Shown in pieces: positions 5,674 through 41,767 of a stretch of 64,000 nt of DNA. The translations under genes and the position numbers were made by a program. The stretch comes from an uncultured Bdellovibrionales bacterium (GTDB taxonomy: Bacteria; Patescibacteriota; Minisyncoccia; Moranbacterales; UBA1568), in the NCBI GenBank assembly GCA_964530135.1, contig CAZGXN010000001.1, positions 4,110-68,109 of the forward strand, read 5' to 3'. A model generated the notes under the pieces. The model made no database searches and was not told the DNA's origin. It saw only the letters and a program-made list of their open reading frames with translations. How positions within the stretch are numbered: the stretch's first letter is position 1; each line of letters opens with the position of its first letter.

Positions 5674-6780
5674 TTACTTCCGCTTATCGGAGAGAGAGTA
5701 GATATTTTTTCCTACCTTTGTGAAAAAACTATTGAGGTTGATGATGACCGTCGAACGCTTTACTTGACGGACCTTCATCACGGCCTTCAAGAGCTCTTCG
5801 CGTGTCATAGGATTAACATTCTCTTGGAGGATAGAAGAAAGGACTTCGCGAACAGTCCCAGGACGAAACCCCCAATCAGAAAGAGCATAGGTACCCCGCC
5901 CAACTAGAACAAAGCGTTCATCTTTGATGAGTTCATTATGCACGGTTTGCGGATGTGTCTTCTTGCCCGTTTTGTAGAGGCCGTGCTCATCAATGAGACG
6001 GGCAATTTCACGGAAATGCAGTGGCTGTTTCATCACCTGGAGTATCAGATGGGCACGCTCGCGAGTCCCACGGGGACGGATAGTACTCCAATGGACAAGT
6101 CCGTAACGACCAAAAACATTTTTCTCAATTTCAACAGCTGGAACAAGCAACGACTCAAACATTTCTTTCGTCATATCAGTCGCTCCGGATTTCTTTATAT
6201 ATCGAGCATAGAGATCGTCCAATGACTGAGTCTCAGCCGCCTCCTTGAGAATACCAACGACCAATACTACGAATGCTTCCCATTCTTGAAGAGAAAAATC
6301 ATCCGTCATAATAATCGCTTTGTGTCGCGTGTTCGCCTTGCTCATCCGGCATCCAGGAAAAGCTGAGAGTAGGGCGAGGAGCGCCTTTTCTTCCGAGACA
6401 CTGCCATTTCCCAAGTCTGCGAGAACCGCATCGATCGTCATGATCCCACCTCGTTGTCTCACTCGCTCAATGACACGATTCACCAATGCATGATCTGCTT
6501 CATGGGCCATAATTTCCCGAATCCGCCGCATGATGACATCGACGATCTGACGGACTCGCTCGCGCGTGATACCATGTGTTTTCCCAATTTCTTCGAGTGT
6601 CTTTTCGGTACCATCTGTAATACCAAAACGCGCGCGTGTAATGACACCCGAACGCTCAGGGAAAGACGCCAATAAAGCATCAAAAAGATCTTCGGCCGTA
6701 CGCGTACTTGACAGACGAGCAGAATCAATAGTTTTCCTTCGTTCGGACATAAAAAAATCAATAATTATGATCTCTAACAA
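5674..6780 (-). CDS. DNA-binding protein with a sigma-70 region-4-like HTH and a C-terminal HARE-HTH domain
   Basis: TLEEIGKTHGITRERVRQI is a classic sigma70 r4.2 HTH. The C-terminal PLHFREIARLIDEHGLYKTGKKTHPQTVHNELIKDERFVLVGRGTYAL matches the HARE-HTH pattern. The likely start is the second Met (MSERRK). Confidence 0.6.
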   Translation of the reverse strand: MLEIIIIDFFMSERRKTIDSARLSSTRTAEDLFDALLASFPERSGVITRARFGITDGTEKTLEEIGKTHGITRERVRQIVDVIMRRIREIMAHEADHALVNRVIERVRQRGGIMTIDAVLADLGNGSVSEEKALLALLSAFPGCRMSKANTRHKAIIMTDDFSLQEWEAFVVLVVGILKEAAETQSLDDLYARYIKKSGATDMTKEMFESLLVPAVEIEKNVFGRYGLVHWSTIRPRGTRERAHLILQVMKQPLHFREIARLIDEHGLYKTGKKTHPQTVHNELIKDERFVLVGRGTYALSDWGFRPGTVREVLSSILQENVNPMTREELLKAVMKVRQVKRSTVIINLNSFFTKVGKNIYSLSDKRK

Positions 6781-7766: not shown

Positions 7767-8246
7767 ATGGACACTAATTCCGTGCCGAATCCTGAAGTTA
7801 CCCGCTTCTCCAAGGCCTGGTTCATCCGGACAATAAAGCAGTTTTCAAAGTTTATTATCGTAGGTGGCGTAAACACCGGCATTGATGTCGTTATTTTGCG
7901 GATACTCGTCGGCGTTACTGGTATTGTCGGTGGCGGCGGTATCGTCGTTCTCAACGCTATTTCATTCTCAGTAGCTGTCGTCAACAGTTACTTCATGAAT
8001 AAGCTGTGGACATTTGAAGACAAGACTCGTACCGAAAAGGAGCCTTTCAAATTTTCTCAGTTCTTCATCGTCAGTCTCATCGGCATCAGCATCAACAGCG
8101 GCGTTGTATATGTCATCACGACATTTACCCAACCCATACTCGGCATCTCCGAAGCGAACTGGGTCGTTGTCGCCAAGCTTTTCGCCACTGGATTCTCGCT
8201 CGTTTGGAACTTTATTGGTTACAAACTCTTCGTCTTCAAAAAATAA
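7767..8246 (+). CDS. GtrA-family membrane protein
   Basis: FSKFIIVGGVNTGIDVVIL...VNSYFMNKLWTFEDK is the GtrA-like signature. About 4 TM helices. Confidence 0.7.
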   Translation: MDTNSVPNPEVTRFSKAWFIRTIKQFSKFIIVGGVNTGIDVVILRILVGVTGIVGGGGIVVLNAISFSVAVVNSYFMNKLWTFEDKTRTEKEPFKFSQFFIVSLIGISINSGVVYVITTFTQPILGISEANWVVVAKLFATGFSLVWNFIGYKLFVFKK

Positions 8247-8263
8247 TCAGTGTTTCTCCTGCC

Positions 8264-8295
8264 AAACCCCATCTCCCTTTTATGGGGTTTTGTTT
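8264..8295 (+). terminator. Rho-independent terminator after the gtrA-like gene
   Basis: ccccat(ctccctttt)atgggg followed by ttttgttt. Confidence 0.6.
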
Positions 8296-8316
8296 CGTTC
8301 GTGAGAAAGGTATAAT
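8289..8316 (+). promoter_or_regulatory. putative promoter for dnaX (-10 tataat at 8311-8316, weak -35 ttgttt)
   Basis: tataat is followed by the aggagg RBS at 8318-8323. Confidence 0.35.
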
Positions 8317-8334
8317 AGGAGGCACTGCCATCCA

Positions 8335-9978
8335 TTGAAGCAATCTATGTCCGAAACCTTCTACCGCAAATACCGACCCCTCCAGTTTAAAGACATCATC
8401 GGCCAAGAAACCGCTGTCGCAGTTTTAACCCAAAGTCTCATCACGAGGAAGATTGCCCATGCCTATCTCCTCACTGGGTCACGCGGAACAGGCAAGACAA
8501 CCCTCGCCCGACTCTTTGCCAAAGCGCTGAACTGTTCGGAGCGTACAGGGGTTGAACCCTGTGGACACTGCCCACACTGTCTCGCTCTCGCTGATGGCCG
8601 CTCTCTCGATGTCATCGAGATCGATGCCGCCTCCCACACCGGCGTCGATAATATCCGTGAGCTGCGTGAAACAATCGCGAGTGCGCCAGTAATCGGAACC
8701 TATAAAATCTATATTATCGATGAAGCGCATATGCTCTCCATCGGGGCTTGGAATGCCCTCTTGAAAACACTTGAGGAGCCGCCCGCCCACGCCGTCTTTA
8801 TCCTGGCCACAACGAATGTAGCCAAAGTTCCCGAAACTATTCTCTCACGGACTCTTCGCCTTGATCTCCGCCGCTTTCCGGTTGAGCTGATCGTTACCAA
8901 ACTTGAAAAGATTGCACGGGCCGAAAAATTAAAGATCGACAAAGAAGCCCTCACCCTCATCGCGCGCACCGCTCAAGGTGGTATGCGCGATGCTGAAGTG
9001 CTATTCACACAGATCGCAACACTCGAGGCATCCCCCATCGATGCGGCCCGCGTCGCCCTCCTCCTCGGGACAACAACGCTCGCGGCCAATCACACACTCC
9101 TCACCGCGATCGCCGAGCGCGACCTCACTCGCGCTTTCACCACCATCGCCGAATTGAAAGACACTGGTGCCCAACTCGCGGGTTTCACTCTGTCGCTCCT
9201 CGAATACTGTCGAAAACTCCTCTTCGCCTCAGTGGACCGAGATACGGCCAACAAACTCATCGATGATTTCACACCTGAAGAAAAGTCTGAGCTCTTCGCG
9301 CTCGCCACAGCCCTCGGTTCGGACCGCATTGTCGAATGCCTCGAGCGTTTCCAAGAAGCAGACCGGCTTATCAAGGTCTCGCCCTTGCCCGAGCTCCCGA
9401 TCGAAATCGCAGTCGTCAAGCTTATCCAAAACGATCAACCAAGCGCCACTCACCTCCCTGTAGCTCCAACGATCGCACCCAAAGCCCCCACACCCCATAC
9501 TCCAGCGAACCCAAAACCCACCGCTCCAAAAAAAGTAAAGCCTGACTCAACAAAACAATTCACTTCCCTAGAATCTACTTCTGTTATAGCACCACTGCAG
9601 GAACTAAAGGCGATCACTCCCGATATGACTGTCGATCTGGAACTCGCTCTCCGTCAATGGCAGGCTATCAAGCTGCATGCCCTCCGACTAAACGCTTCGC
9701 TCGGTGTTGCTCTCTCGACGGCGACCCCGATCATCCAGGATCATCGGCTCATACTCCAGGTAAAGTACCCCTTCCATAAAGACCGTCTCACTCAACCAGC
9801 AAACCGATTGACACTCGACCAAGCCTTTGTTACGATTTTGGGGTTTCGTACACCCTGGGGCATCACCACTGAAAAAGAAGCGACTGAGGCGAAGCCAAAA
9901 GTTACCGCTGAACGGCCCGCCGTCATCGACGAAGCGATAGCTATGCTCGGGGGACAGCTCGTTACCGAAACCAATTAG
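8335..9978 (+). CDS. dnaX: DNA polymerase III subunit gamma/tau
   Basis: KYRPLQFKDIIGQE, GSRGTGKTT and the zinc module CGHCPHC are present, followed by clamp-loader motifs. Confidence 0.85.
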   Translation: MKQSMSETFYRKYRPLQFKDIIGQETAVAVLTQSLITRKIAHAYLLTGSRGTGKTTLARLFAKALNCSERTGVEPCGHCPHCLALADGRSLDVIEIDAASHTGVDNIRELRETIASAPVIGTYKIYIIDEAHMLSIGAWNALLKTLEEPPAHAVFILATTNVAKVPETILSRTLRLDLRRFPVELIVTKLEKIARAEKLKIDKEALTLIARTAQGGMRDAEVLFTQIATLEASPIDAARVALLLGTTTLAANHTLLTAIAERDLTRAFTTIAELKDTGAQLAGFTLSLLEYCRKLLFASVDRDTANKLIDDFTPEEKSELFALATALGSDRIVECLERFQEADRLIKVSPLPELPIEIAVVKLIQNDQPSATHLPVAPTIAPKAPTPHTPANPKPTAPKKVKPDSTKQFTSLESTSVIAPLQELKAITPDMTVDLELALRQWQAIKLHALRLNASLGVALSTATPIIQDHRLILQVKYPFHKDRLTQPANRLTLDQAFVTILGFRTPWGITTEKEATEAKPKVTAERPAVIDEAIAMLGGQLVTETN

Positions 9979-12724: not shown

Positions 12725-13078
12725 TTACCAATTCTTCCCATCAAACGGTGTCAGCGTGAGTTTTGAAATATCTACACCACTGAGCGTTCGGACATTGAGA
12801 GCGACTGTCTCCGTGCCCGTGGCTGGGTCCTTCCCCTTTCCAAACGGCTCTACACCACAAATACGGCAGAAGAGATGAGCGATGAATTTTTTATTGAAAC
12901 AGTACTCCGTAAGTTCCGACTCACCGGACAAGAGCTTGAACTGCGCCGCCGGAACAAAGTTTAGAATGAGGCTTTTCACCGCACAGTGCGAGCAATTACA
13001 CTCCAAAATCGAACCTAAATCACTCTCCACTTCAAAAGTTACGGCCCCACAGTGGCATTTTCCCTGATATTTAGCCAT
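12725..13078 (-). CDS. GFA/CENP-V-family zinc protein (glutathione-dependent formaldehyde-activating-like)
   Basis: The GKCHCGAV...CNCSHC...CRICG cysteine pattern is typical of the GFA domain. Confidence 0.7.
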   Translation of the reverse strand: MAKYQGKCHCGAVTFEVESDLGSILECNCSHCAVKSLILNFVPAAQFKLLSGESELTEYCFNKKFIAHLFCRICGVEPFGKGKDPATGTETVALNVRTLSGVDISKLTLTPFDGKNW

Positions 13079-13233: not shown

Positions 13234-13431
13234 ATGACTGGTACTATCAAGACGCTCACGGATCGTGGATTCGGTTTCATCGCTCGCGAAGGCGAGACGA
13301 AGGACCTGTTCTTCCACTCCAAAGAGCTCTCCGGTGTAACATTCGATGAGCTCAAAGTTGGCGACACTGTCAGCTTTGAAGTCGTTGATGGCGAAAAAGG
13401 TCCGGCCGCGGTCAATGTGACTCGCGCCTAA
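13234..13431 (+). CDS. cold-shock protein (CspA family)
   Basis: MTGTIKTLTDRGFGFIAREGETKDLFFH contains the RNP1/RNP2 motifs. 65 aa. Confidence 0.9.
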   Translation: MTGTIKTLTDRGFGFIAREGETKDLFFHSKELSGVTFDELKVGDTVSFEVVDGEKGPAAVNVTRA

Positions 13432-13768: not shown

Positions 13769-15355
13769 TTAGAGATCATTGCCTGAATAGGAAAGATTGA
13801 AGCTCTTATTGATCAATGGAAAATCCGGCACCATATCACTCGTTACAAGATATGGAAAAACCGGCCAATTCAAGAAAGATGGGTCCCGCACCTTCACGCG
13901 TGTAACCGCGCCGACAGAATCCGTAGCAATGAAGTAAACAATATCCCCGCGCCAACCTTCGACGAGACCAACTGCATGCGCATTGGGCGTGAGCGAATTG
14001 ACTGTGGCAGCAATGGGTCCATTCTTTGAAGCCTCTTGTTCAATCGCTTGATGCAAGATTTTGAAAGATTGGTACACTTCGCGCTCCCGAATCTTGTATC
14101 GAGCAAAGACATCGCCAGCCGTCTCAGTAGGGACAGAAAATTGAATCCTCTCATACGCCGCATATGAAAAGTCTGTCCGCGCATCGGCTTTGATACCGAT
14201 GGCCCGTGCGCCGATCCCCACAATCCCATGATCTATCCCAATAGAACGTTCTATTCGACCCGTGTTTTGAAGTCGATTGAGCAGTGAGAGGCTTTCCGAC
14301 ACTGCCTCCATTATTTCCCGAAAATCCTGTTCGAGATCCATACTATCTGCCTTGAGAGCTATTAGTTGGTCATTGGAGATATCCTGTGTCAATCCGCCTG
14401 GGAGGAGCATGCCCCGCAGAAAACGGTGGCCGGTGAGTCGCTCGTTCCATTCCATTACTCGTTCACGAAGACGCGTCCCTTGACTCCCCCCAAATGCGAG
14501 GCCCGTGTCAAGCATGATAAACGCAAGATCATTGAAATGATTGGCTAATCGTTCGAGCTCAGCGAGTATTGTCCGGAGATAGATCGCCCGCCGAGGTACT
14601 TCCACTGATGCGAGCGTCTCAATAGCCTGACAATAAGCCAGGGCATGATGAAATGAACTATCACCTGAAATGCGTTCCGCTAATGCCACTCGTTTTTCAG
14701 ATGAGAGCACTTCAAAAAGTTTTTCCGTTCCTTTGTGGACATAACCCAGGCGTGATTCGAGACGGAGGATCTCTTCACCCAGGACACTGAAACGAAAGTG
14801 CCCGGGCTCAATAATGCCAGCATGGACGGGACCGACGGGTATTTCATACACCCCTTCGCCCTCATAGCGCTTGAAAGTCGCCCATTCCTTTTCCTGAGGC
14901 TCAGTGATCACCGTGTTCCACTGAAACTCTTTCCTGAGCGGATAGATATCTTTGGGAAAATTTTCAGCATGGAGAGTTATCCGTTCTGGTTGAGGGTGTC
15001 CATCTGGATTAAGCCCAAAAAAAGTCAAAATCTCGCGCTCATACATGGCAAATTCTTGGTCTTCGGGCGTGAGTGAAGGAAATGAAGGCTTGTCAGCATC
15101 CACTGTGAGGTATGGTATAAGAAAACAATTTTCCTTTGGCACACCAAAGACATAGTAGATTCGAAAATTCCTGTTACTTGCTCGCTCATCGGTAGCAGAA
15201 ACTGTTTTGAGCGGGAGACTGTGTGTTTTCTTCAAAGTACGGATAACTTGAGGAAGAGCCTCTGCAGATACCTCAAATAACACCCGATTTCCTTCGACTG
15301 TTGGGTTGGGAATATCGAGACCAAAACGCTGGAATACGCGGAGTGAGTCAATCAT
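13769..15355 (-). CDS. NuoC-NuoD / [NiFe]-hydrogenase large-subunit-like protein (Ehr-type) lacking both Ni-Fe cysteine motifs
   Basis: An N-terminal 30-kDa (NuoC-like) domain is fused to a NuoD/HycE-like domain. Where RxCGxCxxxH is expected it reads RISGDSSFHHALAYCQAIE. The C-terminus is SFNLSYSGNDL with no DPCxxC motif. Confidence 0.8.
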   Translation of the reverse strand: MIDSLRVFQRFGLDIPNPTVEGNRVLFEVSAEALPQVIRTLKKTHSLPLKTVSATDERASNRNFRIYYVFGVPKENCFLIPYLTVDADKPSFPSLTPEDQEFAMYEREILTFFGLNPDGHPQPERITLHAENFPKDIYPLRKEFQWNTVITEPQEKEWATFKRYEGEGVYEIPVGPVHAGIIEPGHFRFSVLGEEILRLESRLGYVHKGTEKLFEVLSSEKRVALAERISGDSSFHHALAYCQAIETLASVEVPRRAIYLRTILAELERLANHFNDLAFIMLDTGLAFGGSQGTRLRERVMEWNERLTGHRFLRGMLLPGGLTQDISNDQLIALKADSMDLEQDFREIMEAVSESLSLLNRLQNTGRIERSIGIDHGIVGIGARAIGIKADARTDFSYAAYERIQFSVPTETAGDVFARYKIREREVYQSFKILHQAIEQEASKNGPIAATVNSLTPNAHAVGLVEGWRGDIVYFIATDSVGAVTRVKVRDPSFLNWPVFPYLVTSDMVPDFPLINKSFNLSYSGNDL

Positions 15356-15360
15356 ATAAT

Positions 15361-16812
15361 TTAGTCAGTGAGATCTTGACGAATAGATTCGAGGAGTGCT
15401 GAGAGTGGCTCAGGGAGATGCCAGCTAAGGACAAGCAGGGTCACAAGAATTAGTACTGCTGGGAGCTGTGTGAGGAAAGAACTCTCTCCGCGTTCGATCC
15501 CCTCCGACACCGACCCATACATCAAAGCGGTTACGAAACGGAGGAGTCCAAAAAACATGATACTGAGTGCTCCAAGGAGTGCCACTGCAAGCCAAGGTGA
15601 AAACTGAATGGCAGCTGAAAGGATAAGAAACTTCGTCGTGAAAAGCGCGAAGGGTGGCAGTCCAGCGAGGATAAGGATACCAACGAAGAAAAGTGGCCCA
15701 GAAAGTGGGAGCGCTGTGAGGACACCCCTGACATTCTTGAGCTTGGTCGAACTGTAACAAAGGAAAATGTTGCCCGCGAGCAGGAAAAGCATCGACTTGA
15801 TCAGCGCATGATAGAGCATATGGAAAAGGCTCGCGAGAATTCCAACACCTCCTAAACCAAAACCAAGAGTGATGAGGCCCATATGCTCAATGCTTGAATA
15901 CGCCAACAAACGCTTGTAATTCTTCTGGATAAATATAATGAAGGCTGCAAGGAAAATTGAGAGTATCCCGAAAAAAATAAAGAGGCTACTGGTAAAGTGA
16001 GCATCGTCACCCAGGGCAATATCTGTAACCAACTTCCACCGCAACACTGCAAAAAGCGCGACATTGAGGAGTACGCCTGACAAAAGGGCTGAGATCGGCG
16101 AAGGTGCTTTGCTGTGCGCATCTGGAAGCCAAGTATGGAGAGGTGCCAGACCAATCTTGGTCCCATAACCGATAAATACTAAAACAAAGGCAATTTTGAC
16201 GGCTCCTGATGGCAATGTTCCTGCCGCCGCAATAAAACCAGCCCAATCAGTCGCACTCGAACGCTCGCCCTGAAGCGCGATAAAAATAAGTGTCCCCAAG
16301 AGACCAATCAGAAGACCGAGTGCATTGATGATGAGGTATTTCCAGGCAGCCTCGGTCGCACTGGGCTTATTATAAAAACTGATAAGAAAGACTGTTGCTA
16401 GCGTCGTGGCTTCAATAGCGATCCAGGTAACGATTGGATTTGTGGTTGAAACGGCCAGATACATGGCAAAAAGAAACAGCTCCAACAAAACAAAAAACTG
16501 ACGCACCCGGCGTGGTCCAATGATCCCCTTGGCTACCTCAGCGCGAAGATACCCCACTGAATAGAGTGAGACAAAAAAACCAACCAACGCGATCAAGAGT
16601 ACGAGGTACACTGATAAATTATCCAGTGCCAGGCCGCCCGGGTGAATTGTCGGCGTGTTCGCTGACGGCGAAATCACGAGTCGAACAGCGAGTGTGAGTG
16701 CAATACCCGCGGCCGCAATAACACTTCCTTCTATGAGACGAATTTTCTTTGCTGGTAAAAGAAATACAAAGAGGGCAATCAATGCAGGGAGGAAGTTCAG
16801 GATAAATATCAT
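15361..16812 (-). CDS. NuoM/NuoN/MrpD-like antiporter-type membrane subunit
   Basis: Polytopic membrane protein carrying GLAPLHTWLPDAHSKAPSPISALLSG, the conserved motif of the NuoL/M/N-MrpA/D-HyfB/F family. Confidence 0.8.
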   Translation of the reverse strand: MIFILNFLPALIALFVFLLPAKKIRLIEGSVIAAAGIALTLAVRLVISPSANTPTIHPGGLALDNLSVYLVLLIALVGFFVSLYSVGYLRAEVAKGIIGPRRVRQFFVLLELFLFAMYLAVSTTNPIVTWIAIEATTLATVFLISFYNKPSATEAAWKYLIINALGLLIGLLGTLIFIALQGERSSATDWAGFIAAAGTLPSGAVKIAFVLVFIGYGTKIGLAPLHTWLPDAHSKAPSPISALLSGVLLNVALFAVLRWKLVTDIALGDDAHFTSSLFIFFGILSIFLAAFIIFIQKNYKRLLAYSSIEHMGLITLGFGLGGVGILASLFHMLYHALIKSMLFLLAGNIFLCYSSTKLKNVRGVLTALPLSGPLFFVGILILAGLPPFALFTTKFLILSAAIQFSPWLAVALLGALSIMFFGLLRFVTALMYGSVSEGIERGESSFLTQLPAVLILVTLLVLSWHLPEPLSALLESIRQDLTD

Positions 16813-16823
16813 ATAAGAGAGGA

Positions 16824-17483
16824 TTAGTCTTCGGTAAGGTGGCGCATCTCACGAGTATCAAGCGATCCAAATTGACGGTACACGAGACTCAAAAATGTAT
16901 AGGCGATCATCATCCAGATAAGAATATCGAAAATGATACCCATCTCAAGTGCGAAGGTCTGCTTCACGCCAAGGAAAACAGCAAAGAGTATGATGCCATT
17001 CTCAAGTGCCAGGACAGCGATAATCTGTGCGAGTGCCCCTTGTCGATTGATAAGGAGAAAGATAGCGATGAGTACCATCGCGATATTGAAGACAAAAACA
17101 TCCGGCGTAACGGATGACACCACCCACAACGAACTAAAGGTTGAGGAAGCTGCAAAGATGATGAGGCCGAGAAGTACAACCAATGTCAGTGGCATCGAGA
17201 GATAACTCGCACTTGCAACGAGATAACCGAAGCGCTGAATGAGACGCGTGAAAAAGTACGGCGCCAGAATCACTTTAGCGATGAGTGTAATACTACCCAC
17301 AGCTATCAAACTGCGTTCCCCTTCTGCTAGACCAAGAAGTATGAGTACGCCCGCCACCGACGCTGACTGCAGCGCATACAGACGAATGGTATACTTTGTG
17401 CTCCGCACCAGATGCAAAAGTACCACTGTGAGAAAAGCCACGAGATTGAGAATAAGTGCAAGATTGAGGAGAGAAGCTTCCAT
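16824..17483 (-). CDS. small polytopic membrane subunit (HyfE/NuoK-like, tentative)
   Basis: 219 aa with ~6 TM helices, embedded in the operon. Its size is similar to hydrogenase-4 component E. Confidence 0.5.
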   Translation of the reverse strand: MEASLLNLALILNLVAFLTVVLLHLVRSTKYTIRLYALQSASVAGVLILLGLAEGERSLIAVGSITLIAKVILAPYFFTRLIQRFGYLVASASYLSMPLTLVVLLGLIIFAASSTFSSLWVVSSVTPDVFVFNIAMVLIAIFLLINRQGALAQIIAVLALENGIILFAVFLGVKQTFALEMGIIFDILIWMMIAYTFLSLVYRQFGSLDTREMRHLTED

Positions 17484-17487
17484 ATAT

Positions 17488-18468
17488 TTACAGTGTCAAT
17501 GAGACCGTGAGTACCACAGCAACCATACCGAGTACAAATGAAGTAAAGAGTAAATCTGGAACACGGAAGATACGGAATTTTGCCATCAGCGATTCGATGA
17601 GCGCAATAGCGCCGAGAAAACAAACGGTTTTACCAGCAAAAATAAATGCTGGGAGGAAAAGTGTTTGAAATGAAACAAACTCAACTGCGACCCCCCAAGG
17701 AAAGAAAATATTAGCTCCCAATGCGATAAATATAAGAAGTTTATTCGCACTTGCCCATTCCATGAGCGCGAGCCGTTTGCCGGAATATTCCAGCAACATC
17801 GCTTCATGAATCATCGTCAGCTCAAGATGAGTCGCTGGATTGTCTACTGGAAAACGGGAATTTTCAGCAAGGAGAGCGAGCGCAAAAGCGAGGAAAGCAA
17901 CAAAGAGCGGAAAAATTACAGAGAGCGGAAGTGTGCCGAGCTGCGCTACAATATCGAGGACATATCCGGTCCCCGCAAGAAATGAAGCCGGAAGAAATGA
18001 AAAGATGAGTCCTGCTTCAGCCAAGGCTGCTACCATCATCTCTCGGCTTGAACCAAAACCACCAAAGCCACTTCCCGCATCGAGACCAGCCAATGCCAGA
18101 AAGAATGTCATCAGCCCAAAGAGGTAAACAATGATGAGAAAATCACCCGTAGCAGTCAGAGCCCACTCCGGATAGCCTGGAATCGCTGGGGCAATTGCCG
18201 TTACCAGCGGCACAGTCGCACCAAGCAGAAGTGTGATAGCAAAGATGATGTAAGGAGCAAAACGCGTAATCCACGAAGCATCCTCTGAGAGGACTTCATC
18301 TTTTGCGAAGAGCTTGCGCAAATTGCGATACGGTTGAAAGATGTCGGCTCCGACCCGACCTTGGAGACGCGCTTTCAGACGACGAATAATCCCAATACAC
18401 AGCGGCGACAAAACTGGAACCGCAACGATTTGAAGAATAAAGAAAAAGAATTCCATAGGTAGAGTCAT
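17488..18468 (-). CDS. NuoH/HycD/EchB-family membrane subunit
   Basis: ~8 TM helices. Its length and hydrophobicity match the complex-I subunit-1 family. The stop overlaps the upstream gene (18468). Confidence 0.7.
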   Translation of the reverse strand: MTLPMEFFFFILQIVAVPVLSPLCIGIIRRLKARLQGRVGADIFQPYRNLRKLFAKDEVLSEDASWITRFAPYIIFAITLLLGATVPLVTAIAPAIPGYPEWALTATGDFLIIVYLFGLMTFFLALAGLDAGSGFGGFGSSREMMVAALAEAGLIFSFLPASFLAGTGYVLDIVAQLGTLPLSVIFPLFVAFLAFALALLAENSRFPVDNPATHLELTMIHEAMLLEYSGKRLALMEWASANKLLIFIALGANIFFPWGVAVEFVSFQTLFLPAFIFAGKTVCFLGAIALIESLMAKFRIFRVPDLLFTSFVLGMVAVVLTVSLTL

Positions 18469-20531
18469 CAGGATTGCGCCGCCCAGAGCAAGGCACCGAT
18501 GAGGGTGAGGGCGAAATAAAAAATATACATATTCACATTCCCCGTCTGGACACGCCGCACTCGATCCGCGAAATAATGAATGGATCGGCCGATTGGTCTG
18601 TATATCCGCTCATGGTATATGTCATGTAAACCCGTCTCAATCCCAACTGTCCGAATAAAATACCGCGTCCGTTCATCGTGATATTCCACTGTCGACTGCC
18701 TCGTTGGTCGGAGAATACCTTGGAAAATCGTTACGAGTGAACGAGAGAAACTCGTCGCTGTAATCTCGCTTCGACCGGAAAGCGGAAAACCACAGTCCCA
18801 GGTCGGACCAATAACTACCCGCCGTTCCCGAGTCATGAAACGAACAACCAAGTACAAAAGTCCTGTAATAAGTCCTAGGAGAACCGCTACTGTCATCAAT
18901 GGAAGAATATCGGCAAAGGCGTGCCGGGAAGCAACAATTTCACGAAAAGGAAAGTACAGCGTTGCTGAATCGGTCAATCCAATACTCGCTACTATACCCG
19001 TCAAACCAGCCAAAACAGCGGGTGATGACAAACCAAAAAGTAGGGCCAAACCCGCGAGGAGGCCCATAGGCAGGAGCATCGGCCAAGCGACCTCGGTTCT
19101 GGCTTCTGCAACCACCACTCGTGGCCGGGCCAAAAATACTGTTCCAAAAACTTTGACAAAACAGGCGATGGCCAAACCGCTGGTGAAAACAAGGCTTGAG
19201 AGAGCAATAAGGAAGGTGATTTTCACCGCTAGGGGTGCGCCCAATACGCCAGCAAAAAGAACTTGGAAAACCAGCCACTCACTCACAAATCCATTGAGGG
19301 GTGGGAGAGCAGCAATCGCGAGTGATCCCACCAAGAAAAAAGCCGCTGTATATGGCATGACGCGTATGAGTCCACCATAAGACTCCATGTTCCGCGTCCC
19401 AGTAACACTGACGAGTGCTCCGGCGCCAAAGAAGAGGAGTGATTTGAAGATCGCATGATTCACCATGTGATAGAGAGCGGCTGCCAGTGCGAAAAGCGCC
19501 ACCTGTTCCTGACCCAATGCAAAGAGCGTCAGCCCAGCCCCAAAGGCAATCGTGATAATTCCAACATTTTCTACCGTACTGTATGCGAGGAGACGCTTGA
19601 GATCACGCTCCGCGTTCGCGTAGAGAATACCGAGCAATGCCGATACCGAACCGATAAGCAGAAATGTCACACCCCATTCAACCCGCGCGCCCTGAAAAAA
19701 ATCAAAGAAAAACCGAAACAGCATAAACAGCGCGGTTTTTACCATGATGCCCGACATAAGCGCCGAAACATGCGACGGCGCCGCAGGATGCGCTTCTGGA
19801 AGCCAGGTATGAAGTGGGATGAGGCCAGCCTTAGTGGAAAATCCGATGAGGGCAAACCCGAGAATAAAAAGTTCGAGCTTCGGCGGTACCGTTCCAAAAA
19901 CCGTACGCCACACATCAAAGGAAAGTGATCCTGTTGCTTTATATGCCAAGAGACAAGCGAGCATGATGAACGCCGTGCCAAAATGTGTCATGAGGAAGTA
20001 GAGAAATCCAGCTCGAACACTTTCAGCCTTCTCACGTTCAAAAACAACAAGAAAGTATGAGGCGAGCGACATCAACTCCCACACCAGAAGGAAAAAAAGT
20101 GCCTGATTGGCTATCGGTACGAGTAAGAGACTCCCGACAAAAAGATTGTAAAAAAATCCAAATGAACCAAGTCGACCACTCCCGATATACTGCTGCTGGT
20201 ACTGATAACCATACACTGAAGCAAGGAGTACCAGGCTAGAGGCTAGTCCCAGAAAAAAAGATCCCATTCCGTCGATACGGAACGAGAGTTCAAGCAATGG
20301 CAATGGCCCCATATACACCCAAGACAGTCCCCGACCCTGCAGGAGCACTGTTGCCGCTATTGCAAGACCAACCAGTGATCCGAGTGCCGCGAAACCGTGA
20401 GCGAGAATATTCGCGAGCCGACCACCATCCTGTCGCCTCGCTTCGGCCAAAAGCGACGCCACTGCGCCAAAGAGGAACAGTCCGACAAGGAGAAACAATG
20501 CATTTTCAGTCATGAAGAATTCCATAATCAC
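18468..20531 (-). CDS. NuoL/HyfB/HycC-like antiporter-type membrane subunit
   Basis: 687 aa. GLIPLHTWLPEAHPAAPSHVSALMSGIMVKT is the family motif. Confidence 0.8.
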   Translation of the reverse strand: MIMEFFMTENALFLLVGLFLFGAVASLLAEARRQDGGRLANILAHGFAALGSLVGLAIAATVLLQGRGLSWVYMGPLPLLELSFRIDGMGSFFLGLASSLVLLASVYGYQYQQQYIGSGRLGSFGFFYNLFVGSLLLVPIANQALFFLLVWELMSLASYFLVVFEREKAESVRAGFLYFLMTHFGTAFIMLACLLAYKATGSLSFDVWRTVFGTVPPKLELFILGFALIGFSTKAGLIPLHTWLPEAHPAAPSHVSALMSGIMVKTALFMLFRFFFDFFQGARVEWGVTFLLIGSVSALLGILYANAERDLKRLLAYSTVENVGIITIAFGAGLTLFALGQEQVALFALAAALYHMVNHAIFKSLLFFGAGALVSVTGTRNMESYGGLIRVMPYTAAFFLVGSLAIAALPPLNGFVSEWLVFQVLFAGVLGAPLAVKITFLIALSSLVFTSGLAIACFVKVFGTVFLARPRVVVAEARTEVAWPMLLPMGLLAGLALLFGLSSPAVLAGLTGIVASIGLTDSATLYFPFREIVASRHAFADILPLMTVAVLLGLITGLLYLVVRFMTRERRVVIGPTWDCGFPLSGRSEITATSFSRSLVTIFQGILRPTRQSTVEYHDERTRYFIRTVGIETGLHDIYHERIYRPIGRSIHYFADRVRRVQTGNVNMYIFYFALTLIGALLWAAQS

Positions 20532-21070
20532 GCAGCCTGAATTGTCCGATTATGATCGATGGTCTCCAATATCTCGAGAACTGCTTTGAGTATAACTTTT
20601 GGTGCCGGTGGATCACCCGAAATTTTAAAATCTACCGGAATGACATCGGCTACCCGATCATACACGGCGTATGAACCGCGATAGATGCCACCATCGATCG
20701 CGCCATCCCCGACCGCGACGACCCACTTAGGTGTCGGCATCGCAGCATAGGTCCGCCGAAGACCTTCAGCCATATTGCGGCTCACTGGGCCGGTCACAAA
20801 GAGCATGTCCGCGTGCCGAGGCGAAGCCACAAATTGCACGCCAAAACGCTCAATATCGTAATAGGCATTGGTGAGCGCAACGAGTTCCTGTTCTTCAGCA
20901 TTACTCGAACCAGCGGCGACCTCACGAATCGCGATAGAACCACCGAACAGTTTATTGGCACGTTCTTTAATCGCTTTGCCGAGAGTCTCAATCTCGCTGA
21001 TTCCACGAATATCACGCTCACTTTTCACCTTGAGCGGTGTCGTAAAGATTTTTTTCAGCATCTGATACAT
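20528..21070 (-). CDS. NuoB / hydrogenase small-subunit-like protein with no cysteines at all (no Fe-S cluster N2 ligands)
   Basis: YDIERFGVQFVASPRHADMLFVTGPVSRNMAEGLRRTYAAMPTPKWVVAVGDGAIDGG aligns to the NuoB core YDxxRFG...SPRQAD...MPEPKWVISMGSCANGGG. All four Cys positions (CC, C, CPP) are replaced: AAGSS, GDG, DPP. Confidence 0.75.
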   Translation of the reverse strand: MYQMLKKIFTTPLKVKSERDIRGISEIETLGKAIKERANKLFGGSIAIREVAAGSSNAEEQELVALTNAYYDIERFGVQFVASPRHADMLFVTGPVSRNMAEGLRRTYAAMPTPKWVVAVGDGAIDGGIYRGSYAVYDRVADVIPVDFKISGDPPAPKVILKAVLEILETIDHNRTIQAA

Positions 21071-21175: not shown

Positions 21176-21793
21176 CTACAAGAGACTCTCTCTCCGATCA
21201 CGCCGATCACGCCAGTACTCAAACACTCCTGGCAAAACCGAAAGAAAAATGATCAATACGACAATCGGTAAGAGGTAACGATCAATATCTTCAATGAGGC
21301 TCCCCAAATAATAGGCAATGAGCGTGAGACCAACCGACCAAAGTACAGCACCGATAAAATTAAAAAAGGCAAAAGTCCCATAATGCATCCGTGCTACGCC
21401 AGCGACGATCGGCGCAAAGGTCCGAACAATCGGAATGAAACGAGCCAGAACAATAGTCTTGCCGCCATAGCGCTCATAGAATGCTTGTGCTTTCAAGATG
21501 TGCGACTTGCGGAACAGGAGCGAGTCCTCACGGGTAAAAATCTTGGGCCCGACGAATGCACCAAACCAATATCCAACCATATTACCTGTGAAAGCCGCTA
21601 TAAAGAGAATGATAAGTAGGAGCGGGAGGGAGAAAAATCCCTGCGCTGCAAGCACGCCCGCGACAAAGAGGAGACTATCACCTGGGAAGAAGAACCCAAG
21701 AAAAAGGCCAGTTTCCGCAAAAACGATCGCGAAAAGCCCAACATACCCGATCGTCTTTATCGCCTGCACCATGTCGATACCAAAAAATTCCAT
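21176..21793 (-). CDS. DedA-family membrane protein
   Basis: The FFPGDSLLFVAGVLA and GKTIVLARFIPIVRTFAPIVAGVARM DedA/SNARE-associated motifs are present. Confidence 0.75.
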   Translation of the reverse strand: MEFFGIDMVQAIKTIGYVGLFAIVFAETGLFLGFFFPGDSLLFVAGVLAAQGFFSLPLLLIILFIAAFTGNMVGYWFGAFVGPKIFTREDSLLFRKSHILKAQAFYERYGGKTIVLARFIPIVRTFAPIVAGVARMHYGTFAFFNFIGAVLWSVGLTLIAYYLGSLIEDIDRYLLPIVVLIIFLSVLPGVFEYWRDRRDRRESLL

Positions 21794-21803: not shown

Positions 21804-23894
21804 CTAGATCGAGTACGCCTCGTCTTTCAGTTTATTATAGAGCATATTCGCTACTTTGCGCGGCAACATCGCGTTCTCCAGAAGCTCGCCCAGCATCCGC
21901 TCTTCGGTTTTGAAGAGCGCATAGCGACCGAAAGACTCATTTAGGTAGGCAAGTTCGGTGCCTATCTTGGTAGCTACTGCATCGCGTTTCTGCTCAGCAT
22001 CGGCCCGAAGCCCCTCGTAGAGCGCGATCACGGATTGGATCGAGGCATCATCCCCGTAAAGCCCGGGGAAGCGTCCCGAGATCGACTTTAGGCGTCGGAG
22101 TACCTTGGCCAACACTACTTCCTGAGCGCGGTAATAACGATATTCCTCGAGGAGCTCCTGCTTCGGGGTCTTCGGGTAGAATTTCTTTCGTAACCTCATA
22201 ATAAGCGTCTCAAACCAATCCTGCTGGAACCGCTCGGCATGACCCATCACCTGCTCTTTCCCCTCCTCGACACGGTCGGTCTGAATAGCGATCTTATTCA
22301 GGATTTCCTTGTATTCCGATTCCGAAATCTCCTGATAAATGTACAACTCCTTCAGAAAGCGTTTTTCCATACCAAGCGCATATACCTGGAGCGCACGGCC
22401 CATATCGGCGGGGATTGCGTCAAAGAGGGATTTGCAAGAAGCAGCTGATTGCTCATAGCGCTCCGTATACTCGCGTTTCAAACGCTCAAAGATCTCATTC
22501 TTTACATACCCCTTGCTATGGAAGTCCCCGAGTTTCTCGAGCGCCTCCTGATAAACCAGAGCCGAACACTCATGATACTCCACAGTCTCAAGCGGCGTCA
22601 GGTCGGATAACTTCATTTTTTTGATCATCGTTCCGATCGAGGTCGCTTTGATGCAAAGCGTGAAGTAGATGCAGCCGATCGTGATCGCTGCGATAAACTC
22701 CTTCACGGTAAAGTCATAACTCCAGCCCGGAAGTGTGAGCGTATCCGGGATGAGGAGCACCATCGTAACTGCAAGCGCACCACGCAAACTCCCCCACGCG
22801 AGAAGATGCTGCCAGGAGATTGGGATCGGTTTTTCCTTTTTCAATCGATTGACCATCGCCACCACCGGATAGATCGAGAGCGCACGCCCAATGAGAACGA
22901 CGACGACTGTGATGAGCATCGGAGCGATGAATTGATCGAACTGTATCGGGAGGTCAGCGAAAAGAAGCCCCATGAGAATGAAGACTAGTGAATTGGCCAC
23001 GAAAGCGAAATAACCCCAGAACTTCTCCATATATTCCTCGACGCGTGGCGAGATCTTGAAACGACCGTAATTGCCAATCACCATCGATGCCATAACCGTC
23101 GCGATGATCGATGAGAACTTGATTTCTTGTCCGAAAAGCACGAGATGATGCGATATGAGTTCGGAAAGGATGAAAGTGAGGTGTGCCACAAGCATGGTCA
23201 GTGTAATCTCGATATGCTCATTATCCTTCACTTTGCCGATGATTTTTGAAAAGATGAAGCCCATGAAAAGGCCAAAAGCGACACCCCCCAGGACCATAGT
23301 CGTAAACATGAAGAGTCCGCCGAGAATACTGCCGAATCCGGTAAATCCCGCAACCGCTACTTCAAGGACGATGAGGAAAAGAGCAAGCGAGGTTCCATCA
23401 TTAAAAAGACTCTCCCCTTCGAAAATGAGTGAGAGCCGGCGCGGTACACCAAACTCCTTGAAGAGTGCGAGCACTGCTACCGGATCTGTCGCTGAGATGA
23501 GCGCACCGAATATAAGGGTTGCCATGAACGGTACCGGAAAGCCGATGAGTGTCAGACCCACGTACAATGCAAAAGCAACAAAAAACGCCGAGATGAGTAG
23601 GCTCACAATCGAGAGCCACGAGATCGAACGAATGTTCTCGGCCATCTCCCGCATATTCATGTTGTAAGCCGACTCAAAGATAAGTATCGGCAGAAAGACG
23701 AAGAAGAGAAGTTCCGGTGTCAGCTGGAAACTCTTAATGAAATGGAAAAGAGGGAAGTTTGAGAGCGGGACTAAGACCGAACCGACGATGACCAAAAGCA
23801 CCGTGTACGGAACTTTCAAACGGCCAGCGACAAAATATGTCCCGATACAAATAAGCATAAGCACCGCGACCGCGAGGACGACTTCGAGCGACAT
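21804..23894 (-). CDS. CPA1-family Na+/H+ antiporter (NhaP-type) with a large C-terminal cytoplasmic domain
   Basis: The ATDPVAVLALFKEFGVPRRLSLIFEGESLFNDGTSLALF signature is present. ~12 TM helices. Confidence 0.8.
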   Translation of the reverse strand: MSLEVVLAVAVLMLICIGTYFVAGRLKVPYTVLLVIVGSVLVPLSNFPLFHFIKSFQLTPELLFFVFLPILIFESAYNMNMREMAENIRSISWLSIVSLLISAFFVAFALYVGLTLIGFPVPFMATLIFGALISATDPVAVLALFKEFGVPRRLSLIFEGESLFNDGTSLALFLIVLEVAVAGFTGFGSILGGLFMFTTMVLGGVAFGLFMGFIFSKIIGKVKDNEHIEITLTMLVAHLTFILSELISHHLVLFGQEIKFSSIIATVMASMVIGNYGRFKISPRVEEYMEKFWGYFAFVANSLVFILMGLLFADLPIQFDQFIAPMLITVVVVLIGRALSIYPVVAMVNRLKKEKPIPISWQHLLAWGSLRGALAVTMVLLIPDTLTLPGWSYDFTVKEFIAAITIGCIYFTLCIKATSIGTMIKKMKLSDLTPLETVEYHECSALVYQEALEKLGDFHSKGYVKNEIFERLKREYTERYEQSAASCKSLFDAIPADMGRALQVYALGMEKRFLKELYIYQEISESEYKEILNKIAIQTDRVEEGKEQVMGHAERFQQDWFETLIMRLRKKFYPKTPKQELLEEYRYYRAQEVVLAKVLRRLKSISGRFPGLYGDDASIQSVIALYEGLRADAEQKRDAVATKIGTELAYLNESFGRYALFKTEERMLGELLENAMLPRKVANMLYNKLKDEAYSI

Positions 23895-39188: not shown

Positions 39189-39614
39189 TCAGTGTACCCC
39201 AGTTGAACCGAAACCTCCAGTCCCGCGGGTTGTCTCATCCAATTCGGCTACTTCCTCAATGTCCGGCCGCTCGACACGCTGGATGAGAAGCTGAGCGATT
39301 TTCTGCCCCTTCTTGACCTCGAATAGTTCCTGCCCGAGATTGACGAGACCAATCAGGTATTCGCCCCGGTAGCCACTATCAATGACGCCACCGAGCGTCT
39401 TCACGCCGAACTTGTGTGATAGCCCACTCTTGTCCCAGACCAAGCTGACATAGCCATCCGGAAGAGCTATCGCTATTCCGGTTGCGACCGAGCGTCGTTC
39501 TCCAGGCTTCAACACAAAATCCTCGACGGAGTACAGATCCATTCCCGCATCACCAGAGTGCGCGAAAGAAGGCATGATAGCGTCCGGATGCAGTTTTTTT
39601 ACTCTGATATTCAT
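39189..39614 (-). CDS. dut: dUTP diphosphatase (start taken at MNIRVKK)
   Basis: The GDAGMDL and GVIDSGYRGE dUTPase motifs are present. Confidence 0.85.
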   Translation of the reverse strand: MNIRVKKLHPDAIMPSFAHSGDAGMDLYSVEDFVLKPGERRSVATGIAIALPDGYVSLVWDKSGLSHKFGVKTLGGVIDSGYRGEYLIGLVNLGQELFEVKKGQKIAQLLIQRVERPDIEEVAELDETTRGTGGFGSTGVH

Positions 39615-40303
39615 AGCTTTTTCTGAATAACATTCCAGACTTTTTCTGCAATTGTTTCGCGCGAGAGCATTTCCCCTTTTCGCGCACAATCAATTTTTGT
39701 CCAAGCATTCAACTTCTTCACCAATTTGAGCGCATTCTCCCGACTCTCAGTGAGATGCTTGGGATTACTTTCGGCTTGATCTTTCTGTCCTTTTTTCAAG
39801 TACACCTTTTTCCGTTTCTGTCCCTCGAGGTCGAGAAGTTTCTGCGACACTTCAACTGATACATCGAGATAAATAATTGTGTCCGGACGTGGAAGGCCGA
39901 AGACGCCGTGTTCCATCTGATCGAGCCACTGGAGGAACTCTTTCTGCTTTTTCGGATCGTGGATCTTGCCACCTTGATGAATCTGATTCGCGCTCACGTA
40001 ACGGTCGAGCACGACGACATATCCTACCTTGAGCCAAGCCTCGATCTTGGACTTTGATTCGAATCGATCTGCCGCATAGAGTACCGATACGATATGCGGA
40101 TCGAGTGCGATGAAGTCGCCAAAGTCCCCAGCGAGACAGCGACCGATAAGCTGACCGAAATGATTTGCTTCGTACTGTGGAAAGTCGAGTGTTTTCGTTT
40201 TGTACCCCTCGGCTTTCAAACGCGACAGAAGCAATCGAGTCTGGGTCGCTTTGCCCGAACCGTCTGAGCCATCGATCACGATGAGCTTGCCATGTTTCGC
40301 CAT
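39611..40303 (-). CDS. tmk: thymidylate kinase
   Basis: KLIVIDGSDGSGKATQ P-loop and DRY-like motif. Confidence 0.85.
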   Translation of the reverse strand: MAKHGKLIVIDGSDGSGKATQTRLLLSRLKAEGYKTKTLDFPQYEANHFGQLIGRCLAGDFGDFIALDPHIVSVLYAADRFESKSKIEAWLKVGYVVVLDRYVSANQIHQGGKIHDPKKQKEFLQWLDQMEHGVFGLPRPDTIIYLDVSVEVSQKLLDLEGQKRKKVYLKKGQKDQAESNPKHLTESRENALKLVKKLNAWTKIDCARKGEMLSRETIAEKVWNVIQKKL

Positions 40304-40304
40304 A

Positions 40305-40859
40305 CTATTCGTGCATAATCATTTCAACCGCCGTATCAAGCTTGGCCTGGAGCTCGGTCAGCTCACCCTCATTCACAATCATAAAATCAGCGAGGGCAAT
40401 CGGCGTCCCCTGACTAAGCCGATTGAGTTGCGCCCAGTCGCGCTCCTCGGCTGCTTGTCGGTCGAGTGGCCGTTCGGGTCGGGTCGCTAATCGAGCATGA
40501 CGGATGCTCGGTCGTGCATGGATTGCAATCGCATAGAAATCATCGTGGAAACGCTCCTTGAACACCCTGTATTCGGATGCTGTATACAATCCGTCGGCTA
40601 ACACAACATCATTCACGCCAAGCGCCTCGATCATCCGGATGACCTCCTGAGCGTAGTAGTCTTCGCCATGGAGATTCCGGAGGTCTTCGCGAACCAGTCG
40701 CTCATTGGCCTGATTGCGTTCCAGCCCGCGACGTTTCATTTCATCCAGCGTTACGCCGCCGAAATACACCTTTGGCCAGCCATACTTTCCTTGTAGGTAC
40801 TGCACCACCTCAGACTTTCCGCTTCCTGGCATTCCGAGTACAGCAACGATTTTTGGCAT
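40305..40859 (-). CDS. P-loop NTPase, probable nucleoside/nucleotide kinase (start taken at MPKIVAVLG)
   Basis: Walker A GMPGSGKS. Small at ~185 aa. It is embedded in the dNTP-metabolism cluster. Confidence 0.5.
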   Translation of the reverse strand: MPKIVAVLGMPGSGKSEVVQYLQGKYGWPKVYFGGVTLDEMKRRGLERNQANERLVREDLRNLHGEDYYAQEVIRMIEALGVNDVVLADGLYTASEYRVFKERFHDDFYAIAIHARPSIRHARLATRPERPLDRQAAEERDWAQLNRLSQGTPIALADFMIVNEGELTELQAKLDTAVEMIMHE

Positions 40860-41764: not shown

Positions 41765-41767
41765 GCA

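Follow-up and report, generated by a model that had tools for sequence, protein, structure and literature searches.

What can a membrane complex do that keeps the architecture of complex I and of the energy-converting [NiFe] hydrogenases, when every one of its metal-ligand cysteines has been replaced? The question is raised by a cassette of six genes on the minus strand at positions 13769-21070 of a DNA stretch of 64,000 nucleotides (nt; contig CAZGXN010000001.1 of assembly GCA_964530135.1), hereafter the window. A first-pass annotation, made from the sequence letters, had described the cassette as a complex-I/hydrogenase-like operon, attributed it to complexes of the energy-converting hydrogenase related (Ehr) type and proposed a machine that translocates ions or senses. 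Both the large-subunit criterion and the gene content class the cassette as an Ehr. Its sequences place it in a branch of that family without cofactor ligands, and we tentatively read its product as an ion translocator that would work without redox chemistry.

The six open reading frames (ORFs) are packed tightly: neighbours either overlap (by 4 and 1 nt) or stand 4-11 nt apart (Table 1). Their coordinates were exactly those of the first-pass annotation, and Pfam and NCBIfam profile searches, on which the assignments of the six proteins rest, returned the families that it had claimed. The best PDB matches of the HyfB-like subunit were HycC (7z0s_C), MbhH (6cfw_H) and MrpA (6z16_A), with 9.4e-61 for the HyfB-type match of formate hydrogenlyase 1 (FHL-1). 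Among solved structures, MbhH and MrpA/D are some of the membrane subunits' nearest relatives, and FHL-1 (7z0s) was the best solved-structure match for the large, NuoH-like and HyfB-like subunits. Against PF00374 the large subunit scored 15.9 bits, under the cut-off of that family. A promoter and terminator scan of 13.0-25.5 kb gave promoter-like sites at the shuffled expectation and thus no evidence on an operon. The closest named homologues, at 77-80% identity, belong to Candidatus Moraniibacteriota/Moranbacteria of the candidate phyla radiation (CPR, Patescibacteria), in line with the earlier impression of a reduced genome.

In the alignment with MbhJ (6cfw_J), GSCNGCDIE corresponds to GSSNAEEQE of the small subunit, IGACP to VGDGA and PGCPP to SGDPP, so that the four [4Fe-4S] ligand positions are occupied by S56, E59, G123 (next to D122) and D153; in alignments to Nqo6 and PSST homologues the N2 [4Fe-4S] ligands were likewise without a match. 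The earlier statement that the complex-I cluster motifs CC, C and CPP had given way to AAGSS, GDG and DPP in a cysteine-free protein was essentially right, but the first two positions follow the CxxC spacing of group 4 and not the CC of complex I. In the large subunit, alignment to HycE (7z0s_E) turned RVCGICGFAH into RISGDSSFHH and DPCYSC into NLSYSG, as had been read from the letters (RISGDS for RxCGxC, no C-terminal DPCxxC), with S230, S233, S522 and G525 at the NiFe ligand positions. All eight metal-ligand cysteines are thus replaced, the four of the NiFe site by S, S, S and G and the four of the [4Fe-4S] cluster by S, E, G and D. The quinone site is affected as well: His38 and Tyr87 of Nqo4, the quinone-headgroup ligands in T. 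thermophilus numbering, align to I182 and G231 (alignment to 2fug_4).

No cysteine at all was found in 110 of the 120 closest small-subunit homologues, and the pattern is therefore neither chance nor the oddity of a single genome. The residues that took the place of the cysteines are themselves conserved in the clade (AGS[STD]NA[CE]EQEL, VAVGD[DG]AIDGG and IPGDPPSP), the four columns holding S/T/D, C/E/A, D/G with an adjacent D, and D/N. P0323, a small-subunit homologue of 298 amino acids (aa), has E-C-E-D where the N2 ligands would be, although it contains 14 cysteines; a ferredoxin domain may have been kept after N2 was lost, which would be a different route to cluster loss.

The family was surveyed with an alignment of 29 large subunits as seed, by which 80 genome and 80 metagenome loci were retrieved, and exact-protein look-ups added 15; locus counts refer throughout to loci among the matches listed in the genome and metagenome scans, together with these look-ups. 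Nearly every surveyed locus with enough sequence contained the same six genes. With the subunits abbreviated as S (small), A (HyfB-like), H (NuoH-like), E (HyfE-like), F (HyfF-like) and L (large), loci of the CPR-type clade and of the Rokubacteria type had the order S-A-H-E-F-L, and those of Acidobacteria, Verrucomicrobia, Nitrospirota, Thaumarchaeota and Firmicutes the order A-H-E-F-L-S. The NiFe columns read S-[STE]-S-G in 168 of the 170 large subunits aligned (169 related loci), the sole exceptions being L067 and L100, which read CCCC and are real hydrogenase-type proteins. The large subunit of the window is 40-47% identical to those of Ehr from Acidobacteria, Verrucomicrobia, Nitrospirota, Rokubacteria and Thaumarchaeota. 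The attribution to Ehr made by the first-pass annotation therefore stood, on these columns, on this identity and on a gene set like that of Geobacter; the implied loss of the small-subunit cluster as a general Ehr trait did not.

Outside the clade of the window, CCCC was kept in 117 of 119 complete small subunits, and one reads PCCC. We refer to these cluster-bearing loci as canonical Ehr. By contrast, all loci with a large subunit sharing about 48% identity or more with that of the window have lost three or four cluster ligands, the ligand patterns being SEGD (Moranbacteria type), TCDD, DCDD, SCDD, DADD, DCEN, DTDN, TEGD and DCDN. The window and its relatives are therefore, on the sequences compared, a derived and fully cofactor-free Ehr subclade, and loss of the [4Fe-4S] ligands is not a property of Ehr in general. 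A neighbour-joining tree of large subunits was rooted on L067/L100; in this distance-based tree, built without bootstrap and without curated Ehr references, the window falls within the Ehr sequences and the cluster-less loci form one clade of 27 tips with no CCCC-type member inside. On this topology the cluster loss had a single origin, in a monophyletic and mostly CPR clade. At least 20 ligand-depleted clusters (50% identity) were present among the top 150 matches in 1.84 billion representative proteins.

Some canonical Ehr carry additional iron-sulfur elements. In L015 (11378-12229) the small subunit has a fused N-terminal Fer4 dicluster domain (Verrucomicrobia/Acidobacteria type, about 280 aa), and a separate 112-aa 2x[4Fe-4S] ferredoxin is encoded in eight canonical loci (e.g., L102:11566-11904). 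These sequences suggest that canonical Ehr possess an electron-input wire, provided in some by the Fer4 domain or the ferredoxin gene; in the cassettes and flanks of the cluster-less clade neither of the two was found.

Several further observations were made on the surveyed loci. L067 (9923-11500) and L100 (9917-11509) have the A-H-E-F-L-S order and all four NiFe cysteines; within the sample they are the closest kin of Ehr among true hydrogenases. In Methanoperedens-type loci the 112-aa ferredoxin gene sits between the genes for the large and the small subunit. Tandem pairs of Ehr operons occur in L044, L047, L108, L118 and L122 (Nitrospirota/Verrucomicrobia-type), and L008 has a cluster-less-type cassette plus a second, more divergent set of membrane-subunit genes on the same contig. 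The cluster-less cassettes L001, L006, L007, L008 and L012 lie in metagenome-assembled genomes (MAGs) labelled Bdellovibrionales, Thermoleophilia, Fibrobacteria or Endomicrobiales; such non-CPR labels may reflect mis-binned CPR contigs or lateral transfer.

Selection on the two types was compared by a relative-rate test, in which the average divergence of subunits H, A and F served as the scale. This test was used instead of dN/dS because the relatives are at most 80% identical in protein, where synonymous sites would be saturated. Relative divergence in the cluster-less and the canonical type was 0.86 vs 0.85 for the small subunit and 0.98 vs 1.00 for the large subunit, and apart from the ligand positions hardly any fixed differences separate the two types in any subunit. 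Mean column identity of the large subunit was 65% (29 close homologues); the motifs of its former active site, PVGPVHAGIIEPGHFRF, ERISGDSSFHH and DFPLINKSFNLSYSGNDL, are highly conserved and constitute its most conserved stretches. In nearly every clade locus with enough sequence all six ORFs were intact, across lineages that are about 50% identical, while in L048 the large-subunit gene is split in two. Judged from these alignments, the clade is under strong purifying selection and its peripheral arm is unrelaxed. An AlphaFold2 (AF2) model of the large subunit has a confident global fold (pTM 0.87); pLDDT is below 50 in the beta1-beta2 loop (167-208) and at the C-terminus (509-528), which are the former active site, and pocket geometry is not inferable from it.

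Clade-wide conservation extends to the membrane arm. Both antiporter-like subunits keep the Glu of transmembrane helix (TM) 5, the Lys of TM7 and TM8, the His/Lys of TM11 and the Glu/Lys of TM12, where helices are assigned from motif context and not from a structure of these proteins. In the HyfB-like subunit E152, K234, K265, H355, H359, K363 and E418 are invariant in the clade; in the HyfF-like subunit this holds for E134, K219, H331 and K339, with H335 in 97% of clade sequences, and the TM12 position is K394 in the window, K or E across the clade and E in canonical Ehr. The NuoH-like subunit has a conserved charged chain (E143, E151, E202, R205, D209, H214, E216, H221, E222, E237 and E292) whose acidic members do not vary within the clade, and K70, E161 and N162 of the HyfE-like subunit are invariant. 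The same ion-path residues are highly conserved in canonical Ehr too.

The genes around the cassette separate the two types further. ATP synthase genes lie beside or around 7 of 35 cluster-less cassettes and none of 137 canonical ones (Fisher p = 8.6e-6). L010 reads atpB-E-F-H-A-G-[cassette]-atpD-atpC with junctions of 5 and 24 nt, L087 and L097 read atpA-G-D-C-[cassette], L002 atpG-atpD-[cassette] and L175 atpC-[cassette], and in L098 and L003 atp genes are found 3-5 kb from the cassette. This linkage points to a role in membrane energisation or ion balance of obligate fermenters. The only readable ATP synthase c subunit, that of L010, has by eye an H+-type motif and not the Gln/Ser-Thr/Tyr motif for Na+. 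The notion that the cassette makes a Na+ gradient for a Na+ ATP synthase is thus unsupported, which tells against the simple Na+ version of an ion translocator.

Less strongly linked are SulP (sulfate/bicarbonate-type) and/or beta-carbonic-anhydrase-like genes, which directly adjoin the cassette in six loci of both clades (L012, L089, L175, L035, L104 and L115). Same-strand SulP neighbours are present in the cluster-less loci L012 (11522-13183) and L089 (1640-4367) and in the canonical loci L035 (2889-4649), L104 and L115. Directly after the cluster-less cassette of L175 a beta-carbonic-anhydrase-like protein of 350 aa is encoded (7885-8937, plus strand), which scored 26.8 bits against Pfam CsoSCA_cat (cut-off 21.5) and in which CxDxR and HxxC motifs were recognised by eye; in L104 (14740-15873) and L115 (14347-15462) it recurs behind the SulP gene that comes after canonical Ehr.

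Moranbacteria-type loci, the window included, have the order rplJ-rplL-(Na+/H+ exchanger)-(DedA)-[cassette]-ABC-F ATPase. The DedA gene, which lies outside the core, is possibly co-transcribed with the cassette; it is upstream in L083, L085 and L170 and absent in L172 and the other CPR loci examined. The exchanger is upstream in L085 and L170, as in the window, and absent in L083 and L172. As universal partners of the cassette the two were rejected, being confined to the Moranbacteria-type lineage and variable even there (L172 has neither, L083 no exchanger). Among homologues of the window's neighbour genes only DedA, the ribosomal L10 gene and its neighbour recur across the clade, in one or two loci each; because these neighbours do not flank cassettes across the clade, the cassette has the look of a mobile unit complete in itself. 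The neighbours that do recur all have to do with ions, pH or membrane energisation, and no redox enzyme is among them. Formate dehydrogenase, NuoEF and ferredoxin genes were absent from the cluster-less clade flanks in cross-locus clustering and in queries with the window ORFs. In the window itself, Pfam scans of 40 further ORFs revealed no hyp (hydrogenase maturation), nuoEFG, fdh or atp genes, which agrees with the first-pass annotation on the first three; a maturation endopeptidase, NuoI, NuoA, NuoJ and a third antiporter-like subunit were likewise absent from the window, and MrpB, C, E, F and G from cassette and window.

Regulatory genes were also seen beside the loci. In 24 canonical loci the cassette has an ArsR-type helix-turn-helix (HTH) regulator as a neighbour, which in L017 (4148-4510) stands directly upstream of the gene for the small subunit, and histidine kinases, response regulators and sigma-54-type activators are frequent beside canonical Ehr. 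Beside cluster-less cassettes no ArsR or sigma-54-type activators were seen; a histidine kinase occurs at one locus and response regulators at two.

On the reading that we prefer, the six genes would form an L-shaped, complex-I/Hyf-like membrane complex without NiFe site, N2-type [4Fe-4S] cluster or ferredoxin-type input. The route for H+ and a counter-ion would be the pair of antiporter-like subunits together with the NuoH/HyfE-like channel, in an Mrp-like H+/cation exchange. The driving force would be the membrane gradient kept by the F1Fo ATPase in a fermentative CPR cell, and the NuoB/NuoCD-like cap would lie over the NuoH cavity as a structural part or a gate and would not conduct electrons. 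We infer assembly, transport activity, ion identity, direction and cap role from sequence only. A redox-independent translocator is proposed because the cofactor sites are gone, redox partner genes were not found in the window or in the clade flanks searched, the ion-path residues are intact, purifying selection is strong, and both the ATP synthase and exchanger context and the kinship with MbhH and MrpA/D fit it. Such a translocator, tied to ATPase-based membrane energisation, may well be what the cassette encodes, although we hold this view tentatively and somewhat short of conviction. Rather doubtful, in our estimate, is a redox-free partner of the F1Fo ATPase that would convert the proton gradient into another ion gradient or pH homeostasis, or would run a non-redox reaction in the pocket (e.g., on CO2/HCO3-). 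The earlier suggestion of an ion-translocating or sensing machine would fit this evidence.

Several facts weigh against an ion translocator of this kind. The peripheral arm, above all its former active-site pocket (S230, D232, H237, S522, Y523, D527, H178, E183 and H186), ranks with the best-conserved portions of the complex; a passive cap would hardly seem to call for this, and it hints that a ligand is bound or some chemistry takes place there. True Mrp antiporters require MrpB, C, E, F and G, all of which are absent. The ATP synthase linkage is seen in about one fifth of the clade loci and not in the window, and the near-absence of fixed differences from cluster-bearing Ehr may mean a shared function not yet imagined.

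Because the former NiFe pocket is so extraordinarily conserved, we keep alive the alternative that it binds or catalyses something non-redox, coupled to ion translocation: most concretely energy-coupled CO2/HCO3- handling, by analogy with DabAB or cyanobacterial NDH-1/CupA, or else as a ligand-gated transporter. PF00361 subunits energise CO2 hydration in DAB and NDH-1MS, which counts for this idea, as do pocket residues invariant in both Ehr clades, the unrelaxed peripheral arm, and the SulP and beta-carbonic-anhydrase-like genes next to cassettes. Yet these genes are linked to only 6 of about 172 loci and not to the window, SulP and carbonic anhydrase genes often neighbour each other regardless, no DabA or CupA homologue was seen (nor any such carbonic-anhydrase partner in the window), and CPR bacteria are not known as autotrophs. 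No zinc-type ligand set was identified in the pocket, and AF2 confidence is low exactly there; a pocket chemistry thus seems unlikely to us. The loss of every catalytic ligand, in CPR genomes that evolve reductively, might alternatively mark a decaying relic of a hydrogenase or Ehr. The intact ORFs in nearly every clade locus, the split gene of L048 apart, the column identity of the large subunit and the lack of acceleration in any subunit relative to canonical Ehr speak against decay. Because the charged residues are invariant, no relaxation is seen, and replacement residues and active-site motifs are conserved, the sequences argue that the cassette is functional and that a relic is very unlikely, hardly to be credited.

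The complex could also still be a redox enzyme with an unrecognised cofactor or partner elsewhere in the genome, such as a flavin, a metal site at E59/D122/D153 or a soluble donor on the large subunit. Canonical Ehr, from which it has almost no other fixed differences, keep an Fe-S wire and are presumed oxidoreductases (PMC6349859). The acidic residues conserved at the replaced positions could in principle bind a cation, and the genome is covered for 64 kb only. Against it stand a small subunit without any cysteine, the lack of a NuoI/HycF-type or Fer4 element and of the quinone-site His and Tyr, and the absence of a recurrent redox partner from the clade flanks (clustering) and from window-ORF homologues in related loci; moreover, no [4Fe-4S] cluster with three or four non-Cys ligands is known. 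Hidden redox activity therefore appears improbable. We assign an equally small chance to a sensor or regulator of membrane potential, pH or ions that would modulate ATP synthase or other transporters instead of transporting in bulk. Cassettes embedded in or abutting ATP synthase operons, a peripheral arm conserved without evident chemistry and the ArsR-type regulators, histidine kinases and response regulators often beside canonical Ehr would suit such a role. However, the regulators flank the canonical and not the cluster-less type, no output domain was found, and 7 kb or about 2400 residues with every canonical ion-path residue kept would be a costly sensor in a genome of roughly 1 Mb.

Beyond the cassette, the scans of the further ORFs gave housekeeping functions only, e.g., replication, ribosomal proteins, thymidylate metabolism and GatA-type/GatB amidotransferase subunits (Table 1). 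The TraG/VirD4-like gene and the sigma-70/HARE-HTH gene that adjoins it may be part of a mobile element. Type IV pilus clusters such as the one in the window are typical of episymbiotic CPR bacteria. In the deoxynucleotide cluster the tmk and dut ORFs, as called, overlap by about 80 nt.

Table 1. Coordinates of the cassette genes and of other features of the window.
Feature	Coordinates	Strand	Length	Matches and remarks
NuoB/HycG/MbhJ-like small subunit	20528-21070	-	180 aa	zero Cys; PF01058 (Oxidored_q6) 2.2e-23; alignment to 6cfw_J, 2fug_6
HyfB/HycC/NuoL/MrpA-like antiporter-type subunit	18468-20531	-	687 aa	PF00361 (Proton_antipo_M) 5.5e-60; NF005086 HyfB 7.8e-185
NuoH/HycD/MbhM-like subunit	17488-18468	-	326 aa	joins peripheral and membrane arms; PF00146 (NADHdh) 2.2e-36; HycD 7z0s_D 9.8e-38
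HyfE-like (NuoK-related) small membrane subunit	16824-17483	-	219 aa	NF008556 HyfE 5.8e-14; weak PF00420
HyfF/NuoM/N-like antiporter-type subunit	15361-16812	-	483 aa	PF00361 1.5e-54; NF005044 HyfF 6.1e-121
Fused NuoC + NuoD/HycE-like large subunit	13769-15355	-	528 aa	PF00329 (Complex1_30kDa) + PF00346 (Complex1_49kDa); HycE 7z0s_E 2.8e-70
DedA/VTT-domain membrane protein	21176-21793	-		PF09335; 105 nt upstream of cassette, same strand
CPA1-type Na+/H+ exchanger	21804-23894	-	696 aa	PF00999 9.2e-55; 10 nt upstream of DedA, same strand
Cold-shock-domain gene	~13234-13431	+		immediately downstream of cassette; also in related locus L173
Cysteine-rich GFA-family protein (glutathione-dependent formaldehyde-activating enzyme fold)	12725-13078	-		immediately downstream of cassette
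TraG/VirD4-like type IV secretion system coupling protein	2089-4161	-	690 aa	C-terminal treble-clef zinc finger
Sigma-70 region 4 / HARE-HTH protein	5674-6780			adjoins TraG/VirD4-like gene
Deoxynucleotide cluster	39189-43881	-		dCTP deaminase, thymidylate synthase, dihydrofolate reductase, PAP2 phosphatase, P-loop kinase, thymidylate kinase, dUTPase
Type IV pilus cluster	54230-63301	-		pseudopilin, prepilin peptidase, PilC-like T2SSF, two PilB/PilT-like ATPases

For complex I and the hydrogenases related to it, the central open question is how ions are pumped by chemistry that takes place 100-200 Å away in the peripheral arm. A strongly conserved and widespread superfamily member without a redox centre is a natural dissection of this machine. 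Should it transport ions, then the membrane arm and the NuoH/NuoB/NuoD interface do not depend on electron transfer to work; the complex would then be a natural "redox-free complex I", and the conformational coupling apparatus of the superfamily would run without electrons being transferred. Because almost nothing besides the cluster ligands differs from canonical Ehr, it is also possible that the core function of Ehr at large does not centre on the Fe-S cluster. The finding also touches annotation: copies of the cassette genes in CPR MAGs are routinely annotated as "NADH-quinone oxidoreductase subunits", and "NADH dehydrogenase subunits" are present in more than 30% of freshwater CPR MAGs (PMC9166423), where they are read as fragments of a respiratory chain. 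We infer that many of them are this cassette; for those, NADH oxidation and quinone reduction would be impossible.

Compared with complex I (T. thermophilus 4hea, E. coli 7nyr), the cassette has homologues of NuoB, C, D and H, a K-like subunit and L/M/N homologues, but only two antiporter-like subunits and neither NuoEFG, NuoI, NuoA, NuoJ, N2 cluster nor the quinone-site His and Tyr. E. coli FHL-1 (7z0s) and Hyf (FHL-2) share the HyfB/C/E/F/G/I-type set and the NuoC-like N-terminus fused on the large subunit, but have a NiFe site, a proximal cluster, ferredoxin-type subunits HycF/HycB, formate dehydrogenase and hyp genes, none of which is present in the window; HyfD of the Hyf operon is missing from the cassette. 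MbhJ of the P. furiosus Mbh (6cfw) was the best PDB match of the small subunit (6.5e-24), with ligand spacing of the CxxC type. Mbh and MBS/Mbx (6u8y) likewise combine a group-4 module with Mrp-like ion-translocating subunits, and with MBS/Mbx there is a precedent for the loss of H2 production in a relative of group 4. Both differ in that they keep three [4Fe-4S] clusters and are ferredoxin-driven, and in that they have a full Mrp-type Na+ module (MbhA-G); the window complex has neither. The Mrp antiporter (6z16, 7qru) has MrpA/MrpD-type subunits with a Glu/Lys chain, of which the TM5 Glu, TM7 Lys and TM12 Lys/Glu are present here (E152, K234, K265 and E418 in A; E134, K219 and K394 in F; helices by motif context), and as a redox-independent secondary transporter it works in the mode proposed here; homologues of NuoB, NuoD and NuoH are not part of it, and it depends on MrpB, C, E, F and G. 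Judged by its sequences, the cassette is thus not a hydrogenase, not complex I, because N2 cluster, quinone site, N-module and NuoI are missing, and, for want of MrpB, C, E, F and G, not an Mrp antiporter either.

Ehr were reportedly defined by Marreiros et al. in 2013. They are relatives of group-4 hydrogenases without the NiFe cysteines and of uncharacterised function (PMC6349859, PMC10284858, PMC10432482, PMC4758237). They are known from Geobacter sulfurreducens (GSU0739-0745), Nitrospira, Thaumarchaeota and Margulisbacteria (PMC7894505, PMC4758237, PMC6349859, PMC10284858; Coppi, 2005 and Marreiros, 2013 as cited therein), and the subunit list of the Geobacter Ehr names the same six types as the window cassette (PMC7894505). 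A monophyletic CPR clade within Ehr, with patchy distribution and without the metal cysteines of the large subunit, which "likely cannot interact with H2", was described by Jaffe et al. (2020; PMC7304191), and the clade of the window is almost certainly the same. Their main text deals with the large subunit only and does not mention the small-subunit cluster, the membrane subunits or the ATP synthase context (PMC7304191); our literature searches on CPR, Ehr and ATP synthase returned nothing beyond it. The CPR Ehr clade as such was therefore already published in 2020, while for the cluster loss, the unrelaxed peripheral arm and the embedding in ATP synthase operons no paper was found. Canonical Ehr, for their part, keep the four [4Fe-4S] cysteines and in some cases a Fer4 domain or ferredoxin, which the window clade has lost, and among the surveyed loci the ATP synthase linkage is found in the cluster-less clade only; with the window they share the NuoL-like, NuoH-like, HyfE-like, NuoM/N-like, small and large subunits, the S-[STE]-S-G signature and the same pocket motifs.

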